Positions 3,449-36,571 of a DNA stretch of 64,000 nucleotides are shown piece after piece. Under the pieces are notes generated by a model. It had not been told where the DNA came from, searched no databases, and saw only the letters and a list, made by a program, of their open reading frames with translations. Both the position numbers and the translations under genes were made by a program. Numbering within the stretch: position 1 is the first letter of the stretch; every line of letters starts with the position of its first letter. The stretch comes from Pyrinomonadaceae bacterium (GTDB lineage Bacteria > Acidobacteriota > Blastocatellia > Pyrinomonadales > Pyrinomonadaceae), in NCBI GenBank assembly GCA_035295985.1, contig DATHBT010000004.1:4170-68169 (forward strand), given 5' to 3'.

Positions 3449-3564
3449 TTAGCCACGGAGGGCACAGAGGACGCCGAGCAAAGGCAGAAGGGCCGATCCG
3501 AAATCCGAGAGTTTCGGATCGGCCCTTCTTTTTTCTCTGAGCTCTCTGTGCCCTCTGCGGCTAA
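3449..3564. repeat. nested-palindrome intergenic element, copy 1 (outer inverted repeat TTAGCCACGGAGGGCACAGAGG / CTCTGTGCCCTCTGCGGCTAA around an inner terminator hairpin)
   Basis: The outer arms 3449-3470 and 3544-3564 are complementary with 2 mismatches. The inner hairpin is 3487-3503 / 3512-3528. A near-identical element lies at 16416-16539. Confidence 0.8.
3487..3535 (+). terminator. Rho-independent terminator of the 2449-3435 gene
   Basis: GAAGGGCCGATCCGAAA (3487-3503) pairs perfectly with TTTCGGATCGGCCCTTC (3512-3528) and is followed by a TTTTTT run (3529-3534). Confidence 0.8.
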
Positions 3565-3585: not shown

Positions 3586-5775
3586 TCAGTTGCTCACGGG
3601 GAAGCCGCGCTTCTTCATCAGGGCCTCGACCCTCGCGTCGCGCCCGCGGAAGGAGCGGTAGCCTTCGGCCGGATCGACCGTGTTGCCGACCGAGAAGATG
3701 TGCTGGCGCAGGCGCTCGGCCACCTTCCTGTCGTAAGGGCCGCCGCCCTCGACGAACGTCTGGAAGGCGTCGGCCGTCAGCACGTCAGACCACAGGTAGC
3801 TGTAGTAGCCGGCCGAGTAGCCGTCGCTCGAAAAGACGTGGCCGAACTGCGGCGTGCGGTGGCGCATCACGATCTCGGCGGGCATCCCCAGCGCGGCCAG
3901 CGTCTCGCGCTCGAAGGCGTCCGCGTCGATCTTCTGCGAGCCGGCGAGGTGCAGCTTCATATCAACCAGCGCGCTCGCCAGGTACTCCACCGTCTCGAAG
4001 CCCTGGTTGAAGGTCGAGGCGCGCTCGATGCGATCCACGAGCGCCTGCGGGATGGGCTTGCCGGTCTGGTAGTGCAGGGCGAAACGCTGTAGCACCTGCG
4101 GCGTCGAGAGCCAGTGTTCGAGTAGCTGCGACGGGAACTCGACGTAGTCGCGCGCCACGGCCGTGCCCGAGAGCGACGGGTAGGTGACGTTCGACGACAG
4201 CCCGTGCAGCGCGTGGCCGAACTCGTGGAAGAGCGTCTTGGCGTCGTCCCAGGAGATGAGCACAGGCTCGCCGGGCTTGCCCCTCACGAAGTTGGAGTTG
4301 TTCGAGACGATGGTCGGCACGTCGCCGTTCACACGCTCCTGGCGGCGGTAGGCGTTCATCCACGCGCCGGAGCGTTTGCCCTCGCGCGCGTAGGGGTCGA
4401 AGTACCAGAGTCCGACGTGCCTGCCCGTCTTCTTGTCCTTCACCTCCCAGACGCGCACGTCCGGGTGATAGATGGGGACGTTCGTGACGGGCGTGAAGTC
4501 GAAATTAAACAGCTCGCCCGCGACCCAGAACATGCCCTCGCGCAGCTTGTCTAGTTGCAGGTAGGGCTTGACCTCGTTCTGGTCCAGATCGTAGCGGGCC
4601 TTGCGAACCTTCTCGGCGTAGTACCGATAATCCCACGGCTCGATCTTGATCTTGGCGCCCTCCTTGCCGGCGAGCGCCTGCATGTCGGCGACCTCCTGCC
4701 GGACGCGCGCGACCGCGGGCTTCCAGACCGCCTCCATCAACTGCATGGCGCGTTCGGGCGTCTTCGCCATCGCGTTCTCCAAACGCCAGTGCGCGTGCGT
4801 CTGGTAGCCGAGGAGCTTGGCCCGCTCGGCGCGCAAGGTGAGGATTTCGGTAATGATCGCGTTGTTGTCGTTCTTGTCGCCGTTGTCGCCGCGGTTGACG
4901 AACATGCGCCAGACCTTTTCGCGCAGGTCGCGCCGGTCGGAGTAGGTCAGGAACGGATCGACGGACGAGCGCGTGTTGACGATGACCCAGGCGTCCTTCA
5001 TCCCCTTCGCGGCGGCGGCCTGTGCGGCGGCGTCGCGCGCTGACTGCGGCAGGCCCGCCAGGTCGGCCTCCGACTTGAGGGCAAGGAACTGCTCGGTCTC
5101 GTCGGCCAGGAGGTTCTGGCTGAACCGCGTGTAGAGGCCGGCGAGCTGCTGGTTGATCTCGGAGAGGCGCGCTTTGGATTTGGCGTCGAGCTTCGCGCCG
5201 GAGCGGACGAAGTTCGTGTGGTAGAGCCACGCGAGGCGCTGCTGTTCGGGCGTCAGCTTCGCCTTGTCGGGCGAGTTATAGACGGCCTCGATGCGGCGGA
5301 ACAGGGCCTCGTTCTGCGTGATCTTGTCGTTGAAGGCGGCGAGGCGCGGGGCCATCTCGCGCTCGACCGTGCGGAACTCCGGCGTGTTCATCGTCGAACT
5401 CCAGATGCCGTACACGGTGCTGACGCGGTTGAGCGTGCGCCCGGCGCGCTCGCCCGCGGCGATGGTGTTCTCGAAGGTCGGCGGCGCGGGGTCGTTGGCG
5501 ATCTTCTCGATCTCCGACAAATTCTCGGCCATCGCCGCTTCGAGCGCCGGCTTGAAGTGCTCGACGCGGACGCGGTCGAACGGGGGCACGCCGCCGTAAG
5601 GGCCTTCCCACTTCGCGAGGAGCGGGTTCGACTGCGCCGCGGGCTGGGCAGCCGCCTGCGCGGGCGAGCCGCTCGTGTCCGTTGCCGCTCTCACAGTGTT
5701 AACCACCGCGCCGCCCGCGACCACCGCCGCGAGCAGCAGCAGGGCGCTGCTCGAAATCACAGTCATGTTAATCAT
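3586..5775 (-). CDS. dcp: M3 family metallopeptidase, peptidyl-dipeptidase Dcp-like, secreted
   Basis: 729-aa ORF with the zinc motif HEFGHALH. The N-terminus has a signal peptide followed by NPLLAKWEGPYGGVPPFDRVRVEHFKPALE, typical of Dcp. The overall M3 layout is present. Confidence 0.88.
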   Translation of the reverse strand: MINMTVISSSALLLLAAVVAGGAVVNTVRAATDTSGSPAQAAAQPAAQSNPLLAKWEGPYGGVPPFDRVRVEHFKPALEAAMAENLSEIEKIANDPAPPTFENTIAAGERAGRTLNRVSTVYGIWSSTMNTPEFRTVEREMAPRLAAFNDKITQNEALFRRIEAVYNSPDKAKLTPEQQRLAWLYHTNFVRSGAKLDAKSKARLSEINQQLAGLYTRFSQNLLADETEQFLALKSEADLAGLPQSARDAAAQAAAAKGMKDAWVIVNTRSSVDPFLTYSDRRDLREKVWRMFVNRGDNGDKNDNNAIITEILTLRAERAKLLGYQTHAHWRLENAMAKTPERAMQLMEAVWKPAVARVRQEVADMQALAGKEGAKIKIEPWDYRYYAEKVRKARYDLDQNEVKPYLQLDKLREGMFWVAGELFNFDFTPVTNVPIYHPDVRVWEVKDKKTGRHVGLWYFDPYAREGKRSGAWMNAYRRQERVNGDVPTIVSNNSNFVRGKPGEPVLISWDDAKTLFHEFGHALHGLSSNVTYPSLSGTAVARDYVEFPSQLLEHWLSTPQVLQRFALHYQTGKPIPQALVDRIERASTFNQGFETVEYLASALVDMKLHLAGSQKIDADAFERETLAALGMPAEIVMRHRTPQFGHVFSSDGYSAGYYSYLWSDVLTADAFQTFVEGGGPYDRKVAERLRQHIFSVGNTVDPAEGYRSFRGRDARVEALMKKRGFPVSN

Positions 5776-14632: not shown

Positions 14633-15640
14633 TCAACTTTGTGTCTTGCGGCTCTGCGATTGGACGGCCGTGATGGCGATGGCGTCAACGATGTCGTCTG
14701 CCTTGCAGCCGCGCGAGAGATCGTTGCAGGGTTTGTCCAACCCTTGAAGGACAGGGCCGATGGCGGTCGCGCCGGCCAGCCGTTCGGTCAGCTTGTAGGC
14801 GATGTTGCCCGCTTGCAGGTCTGGGAAGATGAGGACGTTGGCGCGCCCCGCGACCTGCGACCCCGGCGCTTTCGATTGGCCGACCGAGGGGACGAGCGCG
14901 GCGTCGGCCTGCAACTCGCCGTCGATCTCCAGATCGGGCGCGCGCGCGCGCACCGTCTTCGTCGCCTCCACGACCTTGTCGATTAGCTGGTGTGTGGCGC
15001 TGCCCTTCGTCGAGAAGGAGAGCATGGCGACGCGCGGCTCTGTTTCGAGCAGCGCGCGGCAGGAGTCGGCCGAGGCGACGGCGATCTCGGCCAGCTCGAC
15101 CGAGGTCGGGTTGACGACCACGCCGCAGTCGGCGTAGATGAGCGCGCCTTCGGCCCCGAAGTCCGCGCGCGGCAGGGCCATGACGAAGAAGCTTGAGACG
15201 AGCTTGAAGCCGCGGCGGACGCCGACGCAGTGGAGCGCGGCGCGCACCGTGTGCGCGGTCGTGTTCGTCGCGCCCGCGACCGAGCCGTCCGCGCGGCCCT
15301 GGCGGACGAGCAGGTTGCCGTAGTAGAGCGGGTCTTGCACGGCGATGCGCGCCTCGTCGGGCATGAGGCCCTTGGCGCGGCGCAGCTCGTGGAAGAGCGC
15401 GGCCGTCTTGTCGAAGTCCGGGGCGCGCCGGTGATCGATAATCTCGACGCCGGAGAGATCGGCGTTCGCGTCGCGCGCGGCCTGCCTGATCTTCTCCTCG
15501 GAGCCGAGCACGGTGATGCGCGCGATTTTGTCGCGGGCGCAGATGCCTGCCGCCACGACCGTGCGCGGGTCTTCGCCCTCGGGAAGTATGATGTGCTGCG
15601 GGTCTGCGGCGGCGCGCCGCCGGATGCGTTCGAGGATCAT
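14633..15640 (-). CDS. pta: phosphate acetyltransferase (short form)
   Basis: 335-aa ORF beginning [31 protein letters not shown], with C-terminal [18 protein letters not shown]. Both are typical of Pta. Confidence 0.92.
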
Positions 15641-15801
15641 GATTAGCTGTTAGCCATTAGCTCTTAGCTGTTAGCCGGAATAAGTAGTGGAGCGCGGGCA
15701 AGTATAGTTCAAGCCGGCGGGGGGCGATAGCGCGCGGCGGTCGGCGGCCGGGTGGCGGCGAAGAGCTAACAGCTAAGAGCCAACGGCTAATGGCTAACAG
15801 C
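15641..15801. repeat. heptamer-arm hairpin, TGTTAGC family, copy A
   Basis: The left arm has 5 units, GATTAGC TGTTAGC CATTAGC TCTTAGC TGTTAGC (15641-15675). The right arm is GCTAACA GCTAAGA GCCAACG GCTAATG GCTAACA (15765-15799). The units pair in register with a few mismatches and wobbles. The loop is 89 nt. The left arm starts immediately after the pta start codon position. Confidence 0.8.
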
Positions 15802-15904
15802 TTTTCCAGACTTTCGCCATGCCTGTAACAAGGCGCGCCGCTATCTAGTGGCCGTTTGAGGGCGAAGCCGTCCGAAAGTCCGTCCGCCGCAGGGAGGGAA
15901 ATCG

Positions 15905-16402
15905 ATGGAGAGCAGATTCAAAGTGCTGGGCCATGGGGCGCACCCGATCCTGATCGTCTTCCCGCTGGGGCTGCTGTCAACCTCGGTCATCTTCGACGTG
16001 ATCTACTTCGCGACGGGCAACGAGCAGTTCTCGCTCGTCTCCTACTGGATGATCGCGGCCGGCGTCATCGGCGGGATCGTCGCGGCCGTGCCGGGCTTCG
16101 TGGACTGGTGGGCCATCCCGCAGGGGACGCGGGCCAAGCGCGTCGGGTTAGTCCACGGCCTCGGCAACGACGTGGTGCTCGTCCTCTTCGGCGTCAGTTG
16201 GTGGCTGCGCCGCGACGCCCCGCCGAACTACCCGCCCGGCGCGGTCGAGGCGCTGCTCTCGTTCGCCGGCTTCGGGCTGGCGCTCTTCACAGGCTGGCTC
16301 GGCGGCGAACTGGTCGAACGGCTCGGCGTCGCCGTGCACGAGGGCGCGCACCTGAACGCGCCGAACACGCTTACGGGCCGGCCCGCGCACGAGGACGAGT
16401 GA
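15905..16402 (+). CDS. DUF2231 domain membrane protein
   Basis: 165-aa ORF with four predicted TM helices. HPILIVFPLGLLSTSVIFDVIYF matches the DUF2231 N-terminal signature. Confidence 0.7.
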   Translation: MESRFKVLGHGAHPILIVFPLGLLSTSVIFDVIYFATGNEQFSLVSYWMIAAGVIGGIVAAVPGFVDWWAIPQGTRAKRVGLVHGLGNDVVLVLFGVSWWLRRDAPPNYPPGAVEALLSFAGFGLALFTGWLGGELVERLGVAVHEGAHLNAPNTLTGRPAHEDE

Positions 16403-16415
16403 GGCGGGAAGGGAA

Positions 16416-16539
16416 TTAGCCACAGAGGGCACAGGGAGCACCGAGGGAGATATAAGGGCCGATCCGAAATCCTCCGAGTGTGGAGTTTCGGATCGGCCCT
16501 TCCGTTTTTCTCCGAGTCCTCTGTGCCCCCTGTGGCTAA
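16416..16539. repeat. nested-palindrome intergenic element, copy 2
   Basis: TTAGCCACAGAGGGCACAGGGA (16416-16437) and TCCTCTGTGCCCCCTGTGGCTAA (16517-16539) flank an inner hairpin at 16454-16469 / 16486-16501. The inner stem core GGGCCGATCCGAAA/TTTCGGATCGGCCC is identical to copy 1. Confidence 0.8.
16454..16510 (+). terminator. Rho-independent terminator of the DUF2231 gene
   Basis: AAGGGCCGATCCGAAA pairs with TTTCGGATCGGCCCTT, followed by CCGTTTTTC (T run 16505-16509). Confidence 0.75.
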
Positions 16540-16576
16540 AACAGGGTGCGACTCGATCACGCCGCGGAGTCGCGCT

Positions 16577-17995
16577 TCAACTTTCGGAATCTTTCAGCGC
16601 GGCGAGCAGCTTGTCGTGGATTCTGTCGAAGCCGCCGTTGGACATGACGGCGACGGTGTCGCCCGCGCGGAGCTGCGGCGCGAGGTGCGCGACGATTGCG
16701 TCCGCGCCGTCGAGGCAGAAGGCGGGCGTCTCGCCGCTCGCGGCAACGTCGCGGACGAGTTCGTCTGCGTCCAGGAGCCGCCCGTACTTGCTGCCCTTGT
16801 CGCGCTCGAAGACCTGCGCGACGACGACGTAGTCGGCCCGCCGCAAAGCCTCGACGTACTCTTCCTGGAAGACCGCGAGGCGCGAGGAGGCGGAGCGCGG
16901 CTCGAAGACGGCGACGAGTCGCCCCTGCCTGTACTTCTCGCGCAGCGCCTGCAAGGTCTCTCGCACGGCCGTCGGGTGGTGCGCGAAGTCGTCGATGACG
17001 GTCACGCCGTTCACAGTGCCGCGCACCTGCATCCGCCGCTGCACGCTCTGGAATGTCGCGAGCGCCTCTTCGATCGCGCTGTTCTCGACGCCCCACGCCG
17101 CGGCGGCGACGATGACGGCCAGACAGTTGCGCACGTTGAACTGGCCGATGAGCGGCGTCTCGAACTCGCCCCACACGCGCCCCTCGCGGAAGACTTTGAA
17201 TCGCGTGCGCTCGCCCGAAAAGTCTATGTCGCGCGCCTGCCACGCGGCGTCTTCCGACGTGCCGAAGGTCTCGACCCGCGTGTGGAGGCGCGCGCCCATC
17301 GCGCCCACGACTTCGCGCACGGCTGGGCTGCCCCATCCGGCGACGAGGCGGCCATTTCCCGGCACCAGATTGATCAGACGCTGGAAGGCCGTCTTGATCG
17401 CGTCGAGGTTCTGGTAGATGTCGGCGTGGTCGAACTCGATGTTGTTGACGATTGCGACCTCGGGCAGGTAGTGCATGAACTTCGGCCCCTTGTCGAAGAA
17501 GGCCGTGTCGTACTCGTCGCCCTCGATGATGAAGTGGTCGCTGTCCGTAACCCTGAAACTCTTGCCGAAGTTCTGCACGACGCCGCCGACGAGGAACGAG
17601 GGGTTGAGGCCGCCGACCTCCATCACCCACGTCGCGATGCTCGTCGCGGTGGTCTTGCCGTGCGTGCCGGCGACGACGAGCGAGCGCCGCCCGCGTATGA
17701 ACTCCTCCTTCACGACCTCGGCCTGCGAGCGGTACACGAGCCTCCGGTTCAGAGTCTCCTCGACCTCGGCGTTGCCGCGCGACAGTGCGTTGCCGATGAC
17801 GACGCAGTCGGGCGCGGGGGTAAGGTTGCCGGGCGCGTACCCCTGGGCGACCGGGATGCCCAGCCCTTCGAGCATCGTGGACATCGGCGGATAGACGTTC
17901 GCGTCCGACCCCGTCACCCTGTGCCCGCGCGCCTGCAACATCCCGGCCAAGCTAGCCATCGCCGTCCCGCAGATTCCGATCAGGTGGTAGTGCAT
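16577..17995 (-). CDS. mpl: UDP-N-acetylmuramate:L-alanyl-gamma-D-glutamyl-meso-diaminopimelate ligase
   Basis: MHYHLIGICGTAMASLAGMLQARGHRVTGSDANVYPPMSTMLEGLGIPV is the Mpl N-terminal signature. The Mur-ligase P-loop GTHGKTTT is present. Confidence 0.92.
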   Translation of the reverse strand: MHYHLIGICGTAMASLAGMLQARGHRVTGSDANVYPPMSTMLEGLGIPVAQGYAPGNLTPAPDCVVIGNALSRGNAEVEETLNRRLVYRSQAEVVKEEFIRGRRSLVVAGTHGKTTATSIATWVMEVGGLNPSFLVGGVVQNFGKSFRVTDSDHFIIEGDEYDTAFFDKGPKFMHYLPEVAIVNNIEFDHADIYQNLDAIKTAFQRLINLVPGNGRLVAGWGSPAVREVVGAMGARLHTRVETFGTSEDAAWQARDIDFSGERTRFKVFREGRVWGEFETPLIGQFNVRNCLAVIVAAAAWGVENSAIEEALATFQSVQRRMQVRGTVNGVTVIDDFAHHPTAVRETLQALREKYRQGRLVAVFEPRSASSRLAVFQEEYVEALRRADYVVVAQVFERDKGSKYGRLLDADELVRDVAASGETPAFCLDGADAIVAHLAPQLRAGDTVAVMSNGGFDRIHDKLLAALKDSES

Positions 17996-18107
17996 AAGAA
18001 GCTGTTGGCTATTAGCTGTTAGCTGTTAGCCGGAAGAAATTAGCTTTCAGTCTCCGCCCCGGTTGTAATTCTCGGTTTTGCTAACAGCTAACAGCTAATA
18101 GCTATTC
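17996..18107. repeat. heptamer-arm hairpin, TGTTAGC family, copy B
   Basis: AAGAAGC TGTTGGC TATTAGC TGTTAGC TGTTAGC (17996-18030) faces GCTAACA GCTAACA GCTAATA GCTATTC (18080-18107). Positions 18010-18030 pair perfectly (21 bp) with 18080-18100. The loop is 49 nt. The element fills the gap between the HK stop and the mpl start. Confidence 0.85.
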
Positions 18108-19448
18108 CTCACTCTTGTCTATGGGGATAGTGAAGGAGAAGGTCGAGCCTTTGCCCTCCTGCGAGTCAACCTTGATTTGGCCGCCGTGGAGTTCGACGAG
18201 CTGGCGGGTGATGTAGAGGCCGAGGCCCGTGCCCTTCTCGCTGCGGGTGGCGCGCGAGCGGGCCTGCTCGTACTTGTCGAAGAGGCGCGGGATGTCCGCG
18301 GCGGGGATGCCGACGCCGGTGTCGGAGACGGAGAAGCGCAAGTGTTCGCCCTCCTCCGCCGCGCGGAGGGTTACGCGCCCCTCGCGCGGCGTGAACTTCA
18401 GCGCGTTCGAGACGAGGTTGACGAGGACGCGCCGGAGCTTCTGGCGGTCGGCGCGCACCGCGGGCAGTTCGTCCGAGACGCCGAGTTCGAGCGCGATGCT
18501 TTTCTCCTCGGCGAGAGGGCGCATCGACTCGTAAACCTCGCCGGCCACGGCGGCCGGCCCGACCGAGCCGAGTTCCAGCTTGAGCGAGCCGGACTCGATC
18601 TTGGCCGAGTCCAGCAGGTCGTTGACCAGCTCGATGAGGTTGTGCGTGTTGCGCTCCATCATCGAGACCATGTTCTTCTGCTCCGGCGTCAGCTCGCCGA
18701 GCCGGCCCGACGAGAAGAAGCTGATGACGCCGCTGATGACCGTGAGCGGCGAGCGCAGGTCGTGCGTCGTGACGGCGAGGAACTCTTCCTTAAGTTCGCC
18801 CACCTCGCGCAGCTTCGCGTTGGCCTTTTCGAGTTCGCGGTTCGACCGCTCAAGCTCCTCGTTCAGCCGCTCCAACTCCTCGCGCTTCTCTTCGAGTTCG
18901 TTGAGGACGGCGACGAGGTCGCGGTTCTGCTGCGCCAGCTCCTCGACGGCCGACTCCTCGTCCGTCTCGGCGAACCGCTCGCGCAACTCCTCGACGCGCT
19001 CGCGCGCGCCCGCCGCGACCGCCGGCGGCAGCCACTTGACGACCGTGACGCGCGTGCCGCCGCCCTCGCGCGACTCGATCTGGAAGTCGTCCATCAGGCG
19101 GCGCGTGCCGGCGAGGCCGACGCCGAGGCCGTGCGGCGACTGGAAGCGCCCGGACATGATGTCGGCGACGGTGCGCTCGCCGATCCCCGGGCCGTCGTCG
19201 CGCGCGGTGATCTGCAGGCCCGTCGCGGCGGGGCCGAATTGCGCGACGGCCAGCGTGATCGCCCCGGAGCGCGCGTACTCGTAGATGTTGCGGGTGAGTT
19301 CGGAGACTGCCGTCGTGATCTTGATCTGCGTCGTCTGGTCGAAGCCCATCTCGCGCGCGAGCCGCCGCACGCGGTCGCGCACCTTGACGATGTCCGACTC
19401 GCGCCGCACGTAGATGTCGCCGAGCCTCGTTGTCTGGATAGCATCCAT
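18102..19448 (-). CDS. histidine kinase with an N-terminal RsbT/RsbW-like GHKL serine-kinase domain (RsbT-like::coiled-coil::HisKA::HATPase)
   Basis: ATG at 19448 is preferred; the ORF track uses TTG at 19460. The N-terminal 140 aa (MDAIQTTRLGDIYV...TTAVSELTRNIYEYA...DDGPGIG...GLGVGLAGTRRLMDDFQIESREGGGTRVTVVKWL) parallels RsbT. A Glu/Leu-rich coiled coil follows, then the H-box TTHDLRSPL and the G-boxes DTGVGI / GTGLGLYI. Confidence 0.85.
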   Translation of the reverse strand: MDAIQTTRLGDIYVRRESDIVKVRDRVRRLAREMGFDQTTQIKITTAVSELTRNIYEYARSGAITLAVAQFGPAATGLQITARDDGPGIGERTVADIMSGRFQSPHGLGVGLAGTRRLMDDFQIESREGGGTRVTVVKWLPPAVAAGARERVEELRERFAETDEESAVEELAQQNRDLVAVLNELEEKREELERLNEELERSNRELEKANAKLREVGELKEEFLAVTTHDLRSPLTVISGVISFFSSGRLGELTPEQKNMVSMMERNTHNLIELVNDLLDSAKIESGSLKLELGSVGPAAVAGEVYESMRPLAEEKSIALELGVSDELPAVRADRQKLRRVLVNLVSNALKFTPREGRVTLRAAEEGEHLRFSVSDTGVGIPAADIPRLFDKYEQARSRATRSEKGTGLGLYITRQLVELHGGQIKVDSQEGKGSTFSFTIPIDKSEE

Positions 19449-19463
19449 CGTTAAGAACAAAGC

Positions 19464-19584
19464 AGTCCGTCGTCCGTGGTCAGTTGTCCGTTGTATCCGC
19501 TTCGCCAGCTCGCCGCCCGCGGATTAAGGATCGAGTTACGCAAGCTCAAACGACTGACAACGGACTACGGACAACTGACGGCCT
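19464..19584. repeat. degenerate heptamer-arm inverted repeat (NGTCCGT / ACGGACN units)
   Basis: The left arm is AGTCCGT CGTCCGT GGTCAGT TGTCCGT TGTATCC (19464-19498). The right arm is ACGACTG ACAACGG ACTACGG ACAACTG ACGGCCT (19550-19584). The best stem is 19481-19494 with 19564-19577, 14 bp with 1 mismatch. Alternative registers are possible. Confidence 0.6.
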
Positions 19585-20636
19585 TACGGCCTTGCTACCA
19601 GGATCGTGGCGTCGTCCGAGCCGCGGCTGTAGTCGCGCAGGAGGACGCCGGCAATAAGTTGCGGACTCTTCTGGAGCAGCCCGGGGTAGTCGCCCATGTC
19701 CCAGGACGCGCTCAGGCCGTCGGAGGCGAGCACAACCGTCGCGCCCTCGCCCCAGCGCGACTGCCAGACGCGCAGCTTGCCGAGCCGCGCGCCGAGCGTG
19801 CCGTTGGCCGAGACGGGGCGGATCGGCTCAGGCGAGTTGAAGACGCGCACCTCGACGTTGCCCACGCCCGCATAGTAGAAAGCCTCGCGGCGCGTGTCCA
19901 CCACGCACGCGCCCATCACCGCGCCGCGGGTGGAGCGCAGCCGGTCGTGCGTCTTCAGGAAGAGGGTGTCGAGTCCCTCCCCCTGCCACTCCGAGAGCAC
20001 TTCGAGCGCGCCGCGCGCGGCCTCCTGCGCGCCGTGGCCGTGGCCGAGGCCGTCGATGACGGCGAGCAGGGTCGCGCCCGCGCGGCGGCGGACGAAGTAG
20101 GCGTCGCCGTTGGCGGTCTCGCCCGGTCGCGGCCGGCTCCACGCGCCGTAGCGGCGCGTGGTGGCCGCGTGGTGCTGCTCCAACCGCGCGGCCTCGACCC
20201 ACTTGCGGCAGAGCAGGGCCGTGCCGTGCGTCGTGCGGCGCAAGCCGGCGGAGACGCCGCGCGGGCGCGGCGCGGGCACGGACGAGTAGAAGTCGAACTC
20301 GTGCATCAGGCGGCGGATCGCGCCCAGGCCCGCGCCGAGGCTCCCGCCCGTGGTGACGCCGTCGCGCACGGCGCGGTCGATGTCGGGGATGCCGGGGCCT
20401 TTGTCGCAGTAGAAGAGTTCGAGGCCGGGTTCTGCGCCGAGCGGCGCGGCGAAGTGAACCCATCCGCCGCCCGTCGCGTAGCGGACGGCGTTGGTGCCGA
20501 TCTCCTGTACGACGATGTCGATCTCGGCCAGCTCGCGCTCGGTGAAGCCGACGCGCTTGGCGAAACTGTGCACGGCCCGCCGCGCCGCGCCCACCTGCGC
20601 GTCGTCCGCCACCTCCATCGACTGGATCGAACGCAT
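19584..20636 (-). CDS. ATP-binding SpoIIE/PP2C family protein phosphatase (RsbT/RsbW-like kinase domain fused to PP2C)
   Basis: The N-terminus VVQEIGTNAVRYA...CDKGPGIPDIDRAVRDGVTTGGSLGAGLGAIRRLMHEFDFYS is a GHKL serine-kinase-like domain. The C-terminal half, with NGDAYFV...LLAVIDGLGHGHGAQEAA...VLASDGL, is a PP2C/SpoIIE phosphatase. Confidence 0.85.
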   Translation of the reverse strand: MRSIQSMEVADDAQVGAARRAVHSFAKRVGFTERELAEIDIVVQEIGTNAVRYATGGGWVHFAAPLGAEPGLELFYCDKGPGIPDIDRAVRDGVTTGGSLGAGLGAIRRLMHEFDFYSSVPAPRPRGVSAGLRRTTHGTALLCRKWVEAARLEQHHAATTRRYGAWSRPRPGETANGDAYFVRRRAGATLLAVIDGLGHGHGAQEAARGALEVLSEWQGEGLDTLFLKTHDRLRSTRGAVMGACVVDTRREAFYYAGVGNVEVRVFNSPEPIRPVSANGTLGARLGKLRVWQSRWGEGATVVLASDGLSASWDMGDYPGLLQKSPQLIAGVLLRDYSRGSDDATILVARP

Positions 20637-20643
20637 GAAAGAA

Positions 20644-20722
20644 ATGATGAATGCGGAATGATGAATGATGAATCAAAAACGGCGGCGGATTTGATCTTCA
20701 TTCATCATTCCGCATTCATCAT
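20644..20722. repeat. heptamer-arm hairpin (ATGATGA / TCATCAT units), 28-bp stem
   Basis: ATGATGA ATGCGGA ATGATGA ATGATGA (20644-20671) pairs with TCTTCAT TCATCAT TCCGCAT TCATCAT (20695-20722) at 27 of 28 positions. The loop is 23 nt. The element fills the rsbT stop / PP2C-fusion start gap. Confidence 0.88.
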
Positions 20723-20736
20723 TCGTCGTTTGCTGC

Positions 20737-21135
20737 TCACAGCCACCGGATGATGGTGACGCGCGTGCCGCGGCCCACCTCCGACTCGATGCTGAACTCG
20801 TCAACGAGGCGCTTCGAGCCGGGCAGCCCCTTGCCGAGGCCGCGGTCGGTGGTGAAGCCGTCGCGCATGGCGGCGTCGATGTCCGGGATGCCGGGGCCTT
20901 TGTCCTCGAAGATGAGGCGGATGCCGGCGCGCCCCTGCGGCCCGCTCGTCGGCTGCGCGATCAGCCGGCCGCGCTTGGCGTACTTGAGGATGTTGCGCGC
21001 CAGCTCGGAGGTGACGGTGGCGAGCCGCGTCTGGTCGAGCAGGCGGAAGCCGACGGCCGCGGCCAGCGCGCGCACCTCGCTGCGCGCCGCCACCATGTCC
21101 TGCTCGGACTCAAGGGTGATTGACCGCGTGTCCAA
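20737..21135 (-). CDS. rsbT: anti-sigma regulatory factor-type serine/threonine kinase, RsbT-like
   Basis: 132 aa with a TTG start that overlaps rsbS by 26 nt. Motifs are SELARNILKYA, FEDKGPGIPDIDAAMRDGFTT and GLGKGLPGSKRLVDEFSIESEVGRGTRVTIIRW. Confidence 0.85.
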   Translation of the reverse strand: MDTRSITLESEQDMVAARSEVRALAAAVGFRLLDQTRLATVTSELARNILKYAKRGRLIAQPTSGPQGRAGIRLIFEDKGPGIPDIDAAMRDGFTTDRGLGKGLPGSKRLVDEFSIESEVGRGTRVTIIRWL

Positions 21136-21547
21136 AACCGCTTAACCCCCCCGGTGCGTCCTCTTCGTCGCAGTTCTCGTCGATGCCGAACTCGTCGCGC
21201 AGCAGCCTGATCCCTTCGTCCACGTTGAGCACGGTCGAGACGCCGTTCAACTCCAGCCCCAGCTCGACGAGCGTGATGGCGACGGCCGGCTGGATGCCGA
21301 CGACCACGGTGCGCGCGTCCATGATGCGCGCCATCGCGGCGATGTCGGAGAGCATCCGGCCGATGAAGGAGTCCACCATCTCCAAGAGCGAGATGTCGAT
21401 GAGCACGCCGCGCGCGCGGGTGCGCTCTAATTCGGAGAGGATACGCTCCTGCAGGTGGACTACGGTGTGATCGTCCATGTCCGTCTGGATCGGGACGATC
21501 AGCACGCGGCCCACCTTCAGGATCGGGATGCGCTGTAAGCCGTTCAT
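21110..21547 (-). CDS. rsbS: STAS-domain stressosome scaffold protein, RsbS-like
   Basis: 145 aa forming a single STAS domain: IPILKVGRVLIVPIQTDMDDHTVVHLQERILSELERTRARGVLIDISLLEMVDSFIGRMLSDIAAMARIMDARTVVVGIQPAVAITLVELGL. Confidence 0.85.
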   Translation of the reverse strand: MNGLQRIPILKVGRVLIVPIQTDMDDHTVVHLQERILSELERTRARGVLIDISLLEMVDSFIGRMLSDIAAMARIMDARTVVVGIQPAVAITLVELGLELNGVSTVLNVDEGIRLLRDEFGIDENCDEEDAPGGLSGFGHAVNHP

Positions 21548-21555
21548 AACTTTAA

Positions 21556-21648
21556 AAGAAGCTGTTAGCTGTTAGCGATTAGCTGTTAGCCAGAAAAAAG
21601 CATTCCTTGTTTTGCTAACAGCTAACGGCTGACGGCTAATGGCTTTCT
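21556..21648. repeat. heptamer-arm hairpin, TGTTAGC family, copy C
   Basis: AAGAAGC TGTTAGC TGTTAGC GATTAGC TGTTAGC (21556-21590) faces GCTAACA GCTAACG GCTGACG GCTAATG GCTTTCT (21614-21648). The arms pair in register with mismatches and G-U wobbles. The loop is 23 nt. The element lies between the rsbR stop and the rsbS start. Confidence 0.8.
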
Positions 21649-22630
21649 ACTTTCCGTTCTCCGGGCCGGGGGCCGGCGCGTGCGCCTCGATTGGCTTGAG
21701 GCCGTTGGCGGCCGTCCCGTTCAGGTGGCGGAGTTGCGCGAGCGTCTGGGCGGGGACGATGGCGCGGCCGACGAGTTCGAGCGCGAGGCGGATGCCGTCG
21801 GACATCTGCGCGCGCGTGGTGATCTGCGAGAGGTCGATGCCGAGCTGCACCATCGTCTGCGCGATGGCGGGGGAGACGCCGGTCAGCACGCAGCGCGCGC
21901 CCATCAGGCGGGCCGCCGTGACGGTCTTGATCAGGTGGTTGGCGACGAGCGTGTCCATCGTGCGGACGCCCGTGATGTCGAGGATCGCGACCGTCGATCC
22001 GGTCTCGACGATGCGCTGGAGCAGCGCCTCCATCATCAGTTGGGCGCGGCGCGAGTCGAGAGTGCCGATGATCGGGAGCGAGAGTATCTTGTCCCAGACC
22101 TTGATGACGGGGGTGGACAGCTCCATCATGTCGGCCCGCTGCTGGCGGATGGTCTCCTCGCGCGAGCGGATGTAGTTCTCGATCATGACGAGCGCCATCT
22201 TGTCGATCATGGTGGCGAGGTGGCCGAGCAGCGAGGCGAGGCGGAAGGAGTCTTCCGACTGGTACTCCTCGACGAGCATGGGCCGCACGGAGTTGCGCAG
22301 CGAGATGACGTAGGTCGCGTTCTCGACCGGCGTGTAGCCCTTCACGGCCCGCAGGTGCGAAATCTCGTTGAGGAAGCGGCGCAGCTCGTCGAAGGCCGGG
22401 TGCTCGAACGCCTCGCCGCCTGAATCGCGCACGGCCTCGGTGAACAGCTCCAGCAGGTTGCGCGACTGCTGGCGCAACTCCTTCTTCGAGATCAGCTCGT
22501 CGCGGAACTCGTCCGACTCAAGCCTGTCCTTGATCCAGAGGTTGAGGATTTCGTCGCGGCGCGCGGCCAGGAGTGTGCTGATGCGCTCCGCGTCCTGCTG
22601 GGCTTGCGTCGTTGCGCCGGTGTCTGCCAT
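21647..22630 (-). CDS. rsbR: RsbR-like stressosome sensor (N-terminal helical sensor domain plus C-terminal STAS)
   Basis: 327 aa. The C-terminal segment STPVIKVWDKILSLPIIGTLDSRRAQLMMEALLQRIVETGSTVAILDITGVRTMDTLVANHLIKTVTAARLMGARCVLTGVSPAIAQTMVQLGIDL is a typical RsbR STAS domain. A GAGGGG SD precedes the ATG at 22630. Confidence 0.82.
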   Translation of the reverse strand: MADTGATTQAQQDAERISTLLAARRDEILNLWIKDRLESDEFRDELISKKELRQQSRNLLELFTEAVRDSGGEAFEHPAFDELRRFLNEISHLRAVKGYTPVENATYVISLRNSVRPMLVEEYQSEDSFRLASLLGHLATMIDKMALVMIENYIRSREETIRQQRADMMELSTPVIKVWDKILSLPIIGTLDSRRAQLMMEALLQRIVETGSTVAILDITGVRTMDTLVANHLIKTVTAARLMGARCVLTGVSPAIAQTMVQLGIDLSQITTRAQMSDGIRLALELVGRAIVPAQTLAQLRHLNGTAANGLKPIEAHAPAPGPENGK

Positions 22631-36487: not shown

Positions 36488-36571
36488 GATTGCGGAATGC
36501 GGATTTCGGATTGCGGATTAGAAGACGGCCTGTCTTTACAATCCGCAATCCGAAATCCGCATTCCGCAATT
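36488..36571. repeat. heptamer-arm hairpin (GATTGCG / CGCAATC units), 31-bp perfect stem
   Basis: The left-arm units GATTGCG GAATGCG GATTTCG GATTGCG start at 36488. The 31-bp stem 36489-36519 pairs perfectly with 36540-36570 (AATCCGCAATCCGAAATCCGCATTCCGCAAT). The loop is 20 nt. The right arm ends at the rfbB stop codon (36571-36573). Confidence 0.9.

Follow-up and report, generated by a model that had tools for sequence, protein, structure and literature searches.

Tandem repeats of a heptanucleotide unit have, to our knowledge, been recorded in bacteria since 1990 without receiving an explanation, and Mazel et al. (1990) reportedly described short tandemly repeated repetitive (STRR) heptanucleotide sequences in heterocystous cyanobacteria. 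The TIGR02436 or "23S rRNA intervening-sequence protein" family is widespread, and we know of no function assigned to it. Here we analyze a stretch of 64,000 nucleotides (hereafter the window; positions 4,170 to 68,169 of contig DATHBT010000004.1, assembly GCA_035295985.1) from a Pyrinomonadaceae bacterium, in which three intergenic hairpins, called copies A, B and C, have arms made of tandem TTAGCnn units. Our results suggest that these hairpins are probably gene-less, non-autonomous or relic members of a family of cassettes in which heptamer arms enclose a gene for a four-helix-bundle protein of the TIGR02436/PF05635 type.

The closest described counterparts of such cassettes are the intervening sequences (IVSs) of 23S rRNA genes that bear an open reading frame (ORF), as in Coxiella burnetii and Leptospira, in which an inverted-repeat stem of about 28–35 bp surrounds a loop holding a four-helix-bundle gene of about 120 amino acids from the same Pfam family (S23p, PF05635) as the gene enclosed here (PMC4990558). 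ORF-bearing IVSs are regarded as selfish, their distribution is sporadic and partly horizontal, and 28-bp IVS stems undergo cleavage by RNase III (PMC4990558). The elements analyzed here share the stem, the loop and, in their full form, the gene. They differ in that all copies examined lie between protein genes and not in helix 9, 25 or 45 of 23S rRNA, that gene-less copies outnumber gene-bearing ones by about 100 to 1, and that their arms consist of tandem heptamers, mostly five, an arrangement that we did not find described for IVSs.

Other known systems share part of this organization. Five tandem heptamers likewise form a hairpin in Geobacter metallireducens, where palindromic heptanucleotide-repeat hairpins were read as putative "global regulator sites" (PMC2700814), and an excess of heptamers in bacteria has been noted (PMC4692102). 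The Geobacter and STRR repeats resemble ours in being intergenic tandem 7-nt units that fall into several unit families per genome, but they belong to another phylum, consist of other units and were read as markers or regulator sites, with no partner gene reported. Repetitive extragenic palindromic (REP) sequences and bacterial interspersed mosaic elements, which go with REP-associated tyrosine transposases (RAYTs), are also high-copy intergenic palindromes located after stop codons and tolerated inside operons (PMC3733652). They carry a GTAG or CGTC head, whereas the heptamer arms are longer and have a period of 7, and the RAYTs of this genome go with other repeats. Finally, the enclosed protein is distantly related to Avd, which acts as an accessory protein in diversity-generating retroelements (PMC6182149, PMC10053308). 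Avd forms a four-helix-bundle barrel that is pentameric and carries a positive charge (PMC6182149). In the literature we searched, mostly titles and abstracts, no paper was found that ties a PF05635/TIGR02436 protein to heptamer repeats.

Census and anatomy of heptamer hairpins

The genome (G000) is a Pyrinomonadaceae metagenome-assembled genome (MAG) of 4.97 Mb in 371 contigs, with 67% G+C and a completeness of 95%. Tandem arrays were detected using Tandem Repeats Finder (TRF), and adjacent reverse-complementary arrays were paired into hairpins. Arrays of period 7 are the most abundant (1894, versus 748 at period 6 and 534 at period 8), and the same pipeline returned 490 inverted pairs at period 7 as opposed to 0, 16, 2 and 4 at periods 6, 8, 5 and 9, respectively. 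The 490 hairpins fall into 62 unit classes, the largest being TTAGCnn with 209–212 copies, and as intergenic tandem heptamer arrays of several unit families within one genome they are of the STRR type. A stricter detector based on exact runs gave 259 hairpins and failed to pick up five of the six heptamer hairpins of the window; the total of 490 is thus probably an undercount, and figures quoted below for the strict subset are lower bounds.

The original prediction had placed three TTAGC hairpins in the window and interpreted them as members of a dispersed, propagating family. All three were recovered at the predicted positions, with arms made of nnTTAGC units throughout, and the genome-wide search brought the family to about 212 copies, which excludes three independent palindromes as well as a group of three copies confined to one 6-kb stretch. 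The prediction was incomplete in that TTAGC is only one of 62 unit classes with a common architecture. The shared flanks are genuine: AAGAAGC, with at most one mismatch, forms the 5′ end of 91 of the 212 TTAGC copies and of 16 of the 278 hairpins made of other units, and GCTTCTT closes the 3′ end of 86 of the former and 16 of the latter. As proportions, these outermost stem segments amount to 43% (AAGAAGC) and 41% (GCTTCTT) of TTAGC copies, compared to 6% at hairpins of other units. The common start of the loop (CCGGAAGAAA-type) also holds, as part of a diverged loop consensus CGGAAG..AGCTTTCAGCTTTCG..GGTTTTCGGTTTT, which in the strict subset reads in the sense orientation in 32 copies and antisense in 15.

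The 490 hairpins have a median arm of 31 nt and a median loop of 49 nt. Exactly five units are present in 63% of the 980 arms and four or five in 87%, and the number of arms drops from about 310 with five units to about 18 with six; the detection thresholds of TRF trim the low end of this distribution and not the high end. Arm order is fixed: the TTAGC arm lies on the 5′ side in each of the 128 strict copies, none of the larger unit families mixes the two orders, and the 5′ arm contains more G than C in 459 hairpins and less in 12. Since a palindrome looks alike from both strands, this fixed order means that stop codons are always followed by a G/U-rich arm and start codons always preceded by an A/C-rich one, irrespective of how the flanking genes are arranged. 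Within the unit, information content in this genome is 1.8–2.0 bits per position for the TTAGC core and falls to 0.96 and 0.75 bits at the last two positions.

The original prediction also considered a REP-like element mobilized by a RAYT, a reading that did not survive the genome-wide search and that we regard as barely credible. The hairpins are indeed high-copy intergenic palindromes and the genome encodes three Y1_Tnp proteins, but the RAYT-like genes are flanked by short GC-rich palindromes of their own (e.g., GACCCTGAAAGGGTC, GCCCCGAAGGGGC and GGGCAGGGACAAGCCCTGCCC). None of them lies between paired heptamer arms; a lone array of AATGATG type is located about 150 nt upstream of the copy on contig C78. 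Moreover, arms of 31 nt with a period of 7 and no GTAG or CGTC head are unlike REPs of 20–40 nt (PMC3733652). The three Y1_Tnp loci constitute a classical REP system that exists beside the heptamer hairpins.

Four-helix-bundle genes between heptamer arms

The genome contains four PF05635 matches, and all four lie between inverted heptamer arms, built of the units TTAGCTG, AGAAGGC, GATTTTC and GTCCGTT/GTCAGTT, respectively. The last of these, on contig C301, has an internal stop codon and was left out of the scan against family cut-offs; the three intact proteins reach the TIGR02436 cut-off, and their matches to the Avd model NF033474 remain below its cut-off. A link to diversity-generating retroelements was considered and rejected, as no RVT_1 match was found in this 95% complete genome. 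The cassettes thus differ from Avd systems in that neither a reverse transcriptase nor a template/variable repeat pair was found and in the family to which their proteins belong.

The cassette with TTAGC arms is located between nuoA and nuoB. It holds a TIGR02436 gene for a protein of 119 amino acids, and the last codons and the stop of this gene are within the 3′ arm. The absence of coding capacity noted in the original prediction is therefore correct for the three copies of the window but not for the family. The cassette is orthologous in five species, with synonymous divergence (dS) of 0.4–2.2 and dN/dS of 0.06–0.15, and the protein is therefore under purifying selection. In a sixth species (G007), the same junction is occupied by a gene-less hairpin of another unit with identical borders.

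A similar association was observed in related genomes, 28 of 31 of which have PF05635-type genes. At about 24 of the 29 loci examined in these relatives, the gene lies between heptamer arms (octamer arms in one case), and the units of the cassettes are those of gene-less hairpins in the same genome, such as AGAGGTC in G005 and G007 and AGATGTC in G002. Two class-level relatives have no PF05635 match; their ribosomal-protein operon contains no array of period 7 and is about 2.6 kb shorter.

The cassette and its unit across phyla

We searched species-representative genomes with a single protein, that of the nuoA–nuoB cassette, which returned 403 relatives, of which 80 were kept. Among these 80, the nearest belong to Pyrinomonadaceae MAGs, and the others, which share 58–69% identity, are distributed among Chloroflexota, Nitrospirota, Methylomirabilota, Actinobacteriota, Deltaproteobacteria, Planctomycetota, Cyanobacteriota, Verrucomicrobiota, Bacteroidota and one archaeon. 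Strong inverted arms flank 52 of the 80 homologues, with a period of 7 in 51 of these 52 and with TCAGCnn or TTAGCnn as the prevailing units. In a control in which arms of different loci were confronted, pairing was still obtained in 21 of 80 cases because the loci have a common unit. Over 64 cassettes, distances between proteins and distances between units are correlated (Mantel r of 0.58, with none of 2000 permutations as high), which indicates that gene and arms are inherited together.

At 48 loci from outside the family, the T-[C/T]-A-G-C core is kept and positions 6 and 7 are near random (0.08 and 0.35 bits); the reading phase was picked by the match to the core, so that the core values themselves are inflated. 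The most frequent number of units per arm in gene-bearing cassettes of other phyla is again five, and the TYAGC arm comes first in about 46 of 52. The excess of G over C in the 5′ arm fails to extend to the TCAGCnn arms of these phyla (22 versus 28). Six homologues were detected on IMG/VR contigs. In the two contigs examined (L162 and L164), which are classified as viral, the proteins have about 60% identity and the arms around both genes are of the TCGGCnn type, differing from the TCAGCnn core at one base.

Turnover among related genomes

The number of matches to the TTAGC pattern varies widely among ten species of the genus: 658, 528, 387, 379, 306 and 238 in six of them, and 35, 18, 2 and 1 in the other four. 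Outside the genus the pattern is nearly absent. The family is thus dispersed and lineage-specific, and its size differs greatly between related species.

A survey of 32 orthologous junctions in 6–12 genomes each (209 junction–genome combinations) revealed a heptamer hairpin in at least 97 combinations. Twenty-one sites are filled in at least two genomes, and 18 of these contain unrelated units in different genomes. At six sites, some genomes have a hairpin where others have a spacer of less than 45 nt. The borders are constant across genomes, a stop codon being followed by the hairpin and then by a ribosome-binding site (RBS) or a start codon. The original prediction had found no target duplication in the window; at filled and empty sites, too, no target-site duplication was detected, although the outer ends are fuzzy and a duplication of 2–3 nt could be accommodated.

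These observations bear on a classical miniature inverted-repeat transposable element (MITE) derived from a DDE or other transposon with matching terminal inverted repeats. Copies that are short, gene-less, numerous and bounded by inverted ends would suit such an element. We nevertheless give this explanation very little weight: besides the lack of target-site duplications, TTAGC arms located 400–1400 nt apart enclose either housekeeping genes (as two adjacent hairpins) or the four-helix-bundle gene, never a transposase.

The junction between the genes designated r27 and r28 of the ribosomal-protein operon (locus L060 on contig C257, positions 1026–1122, 5′ arm GACGAATGCGGAATGATGAATGG) provides an example of coordinated change. 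Its unit is GAATGAT in this genome, of the same AATGATG family as the hairpin at 20643–20724 of the window, and GAACGAT in G004, G007 and G010; the identical base is changed in every repeat of both arms. Such a difference points to concerted change, or to overwriting by a master copy. It could also be expected if arms grew in place, through slippage of a 7-nt unit and template switching to a palindrome with no copying between sites, an origin that would also accommodate 62 unit classes sharing a single architecture. We find growth in place quite improbable, given that copies of a family have common non-repeat ends and a loop consensus, that the unit number peaks sharply at five with no microsatellite-like spread, and that across phyla one unit goes with one protein clade.

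Position relative to genes and RNA-level signals

In a genome that is 83% coding, 391 of the 490 hairpins overlap called genes by 10% or less, and the remaining overlaps are mostly due to start codons set too far upstream by a caller that favors the longest ORF. Approximately one in eight gene junctions of the genome is occupied by a hairpin. Co-directional spacers contain 374 of the hairpins, convergent spacers 61 and divergent spacers 33. Divergent spacers are depleted (the expected number being about 61, p = 4e-5), whereas the number in convergent spacers matches the expectation of about 59, which argues against a terminator role. Some convergent-spacer loops do contain a terminator-like inner hairpin. 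Among 315 clean co-directional cases, the distance from the upstream stop codon to the arm is at most 3 nt in 156 and at most 10 nt in 251, and the next start codon is no more than 10 nt from the end of the arm in 149.

Nested elements were also observed, in which TTAGC arms surround a complete GTCCGTT or AGAAGGC hairpin (C73:3172-3357, C55:7832-8010, C326:15403-15596 and C40:5143-5328). When nested elements lie in convergent spacers, their innermost hairpin resembles a two-way terminator.

Several features of the hairpin sites could be expected of host RNA elements that selection maintains at the junctions of operon genes, whether as RNase III sites, mRNA stabilizers, translational couplers or leaders devoid of a Shine-Dalgarno (SD) motif, with the four-helix-bundle genes inserted later into hairpin loops. 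Some junctions retain a hairpin in all 12 genomes compared, including the rsbT junction, where it persists despite changes of unit. The ribosomal-protein operon on contig C257 (L060) contains twelve heptamer hairpins in 19 kb, and genes adjacent to hairpins have a codon usage closer to that of ribosomal-protein genes (p = 4e-11). SD-like motifs precede 15% of the genes that follow an arm, whose leader is G-poor, and 34% of the others, a difference that is partly explained by the composition of the arm itself. The fixed arm order, which gives every start codon an A/C-rich leader, and the conserved TATACT motif in the loop of copy A, whose 3′ arm may be the pta leader (see below), point in the same direction.

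On the contrary, no bias of folding toward the transcribed strand was found in the co-directional cases, 184 of which favor the sense and 186 the antisense strand. Mismatches in the stems behave similarly. They had been described for the window copies as mostly G-U wobbles, which holds only partially: transitions do prevail over transversions genome-wide (434 versus 273), but these transitions split 226 to 208 between strands, and we looked for a G-U excess on the transcribed strand and found none. There is no sign of selection on RNA pairing. Loops occurring in both orientations, orthologous sites where close relatives have neither a hairpin nor any apparent substitute for it, and a several-hundred-fold spread of copy number within one genus are equally difficult to reconcile with host elements, and selection acting locally on a stem would not predict that one unit follows one gene clade across phyla. 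For these reasons, we judge an origin as host elements unlikely.

One further candidate component was rejected. The sequence GCGAACGGAGTGAGCA stands 1–2 nt before the ATG and immediately after a hairpin arm at only six genes (L060 on C257 at 17618, 12462, 9642 and 8281; C25:31115; C117:18557). It is conserved by site whatever the unit, and we consider it to be the native RBS of these genes and not part of the element.

A probable heptamer-armed cassette family and its possible mechanism

The interpretation that we favor as the probable one is that copies A, B and C are gene-less members of the cassette family. In its full form, the element would consist of a small "23S rRNA IVS protein" gene within inverted arms of about five tandem heptamers. 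Gene-less forms would multiply within lineages by copying into, or replacing, spacers immediately after stop codons, and the four-helix-bundle protein may be the factor that recognizes its own heptamer. Transcribed with the operon, the element would fold into a stem of about 30 bp. On geometric grounds, this stem would bring the upstream stop codon beside the downstream start codon, in which case an insert of 100 nt would do little harm. By analogy with IVSs, the stem is probably cut by RNase III, since IVS stems are cut, an RNase III gene is present in this genome, and the stems reach about 30 bp. After cutting, the G/U-rich arm would become a 3′ end, and the next gene would have the A/C-rich arm for an unstructured leader.

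We propose more tentatively, as an idea that may well prove wrong, that the protein is a pentamer that reads its own heptamer with one unit per subunit, and that cassette and hairpins together represent an undescribed class of mobile or self-maintaining elements. The sharp peak at five units per arm is suggestive when set beside the five chains deposited for each of the closest solved relatives (2GSC and 2RLD) and the pentameric barrel of Avd. If correct, one unit per subunit would explain both the five-unit arms and the retention, per protein clade and across phyla, of a 5-nt core T[C/T]AGC plus two free positions; the specificity factor of the element class would be a small non-enzymatic protein, and long-unexplained bacterial heptamer repeats, STRR among others, would find an explanation. 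Independently of this proposal, heptamer repeats and the TIGR02436 family are tied together both within one genome and across phyla, with regularities that include arms of five units in a fixed order, units built as 5 + 2 positions and a cognate unit for each protein clade. The hairpins also bear on the processing and translation of operon mRNAs in Acidobacteriota, and on gene calling and assembly.

A number of observations weigh against a cassette family that propagates itself. We know of no catalytic activity for the four-helix-bundle fold, and our analysis yielded no candidate mobilizing enzyme. No transposition event was seen among the genomes compared, and target-site duplications were not found. 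The nuoA–nuoB gene is inherited vertically and stably, unlike a usual active transposase gene. In G012, a family-level relative that is 95% complete, eight hairpins of the ribosomal-protein operon all have the unit GGTGATA, and no PF05635 match was detected. The correlation between proteins and units is what plain co-inheritance predicts and is no proof of recognition. Finally, hairpins retained at a junction in all genomes compared and the codon usage of adjacent genes fit a host function too, and the even balance of sense and antisense folds does not single out the transcribed strand.

The hairpins of the window and their neighbors

Six heptamer hairpins were found in the window, the three TTAGC copies and three others of the same architecture (Table 1), none of which corresponds to an Rfam family. 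They are flanked by pta, a DUF2231 gene, genes of a Mur-ligase family protein and a histidine kinase, and RsbT-, RsbS- and RsbR-like genes.

Table 1. Features located in the window and, for the RAYT-like genes, on other contigs of the genome.
Feature	Position	Strand	Description
Copy A	15641..15802	none	5′ arm 15642-15675 (TTAGCnn, five units); 3′ arm 15761-15802 (nnGCTAA, five to six units); loop of 85-89 nt
TATACT motif	15701..15706	minus	In the loop of copy A; site 15697-15713, minus-strand sequence CTTGAACTATACTTGCC
Copy B	17996..18107	none	Arms 18000-18030 and 18080-18104; 49-nt loop of the family type (CGGAAG...GGTTTT, plus strand)
Hairpin of the same architecture	19465..19579	none	Unit GTCCGTT/GTCAGTT; the loop is conserved in copies at other sites of the genome
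Hairpin of the same architecture	20643..20724	none	Unit AATGATG; between an RsbT-like gene and the next gene
Copy C	21556..21648	none	Arms 21560-21590 and 21614-21644; 23-nt loop
Hairpin of the same architecture	36488..36570	none	Unit GATTGCG; perfect 31-bp stem, 20-nt loop
RAYT-like (Y1_Tnp) gene	C354:12900-13620		With its own palindrome family
RAYT-like (Y1_Tnp) gene	C78:10650-11310		With its own palindrome family
RAYT-like (Y1_Tnp) gene	C353:24400-25200		With its own palindrome family

The arms of copies A, B and C are complementary at 88% over 33 nt, 100% over 23 nt and 77% over 39 nt, respectively. With stems of about 23–39 bp, the three copies have the long stem of ORF-bearing IVSs, and no PF05635/TIGR02436 gene is present in their loops of 23–89 nt. 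On the gene strand, their predicted folding energies are −71.2, −48.1 and −35.9 kcal/mol, corresponding to z-scores of −6.5, −7.4 and −5.6. Among 200 shuffled sequences, not one was as stable; the antisense strand of copy C folds more strongly still (−51.5 kcal/mol). No T run follows any of the three 3′ arms, as would be the case for an intrinsic terminator.

Copies B and C each constitute the whole spacer between two genes. Copy B extends from the stop codon of the histidine kinase gene (TAG at 18102-18104, within the arm) to the ATG of the Mur-ligase gene (17995), and in the closest relative the same site has an identical unit and an inverted loop. Copy C extends from the stop codon of the RsbR-like gene (21647-21649) to the ATG of the STAS gene (21547).

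Copy A separates pta (14633-15640, minus strand) from a divergent DUF2231 gene, and its 3′ arm, read in the minus-strand sense, runs up to the ATG of pta. The TATACT motif of the loop is probably the −10 box of a pta promoter, and a TATACT or TATAAT motif upstream of pta is conserved in 9 of the 11 genomes compared; a strict sigma-70 scan of the loop detected no full promoter. Were TATACT the −10 box, the leader of the pta mRNA would consist of the A/C-rich 3′ arm alone. In the closest relative, G004, the 3′ arm alone is left at this site, as the presumed pta leader.

The unit of the hairpin at 19465–19579 also forms the arms of the four-helix-bundle cassette on contig C301. At the rsbT junction, occupied here by the hairpin at 20643–20724, a heptamer hairpin was found in 11 of 11 relatives compared, mostly with the unit AGAGGTC.

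The window further contains two copies of a nested palindrome (3449-3564 and 16416-16539). Their outer arms (TTAGCCACAGAGGGCACAG...) are themselves roughly 7-periodic and surround an inner hairpin (GGGCCGATCCGAAA...TTTCGGATCGGCCC), and in G008 and G003 related elements follow the Mur-ligase gene on its downstream side.

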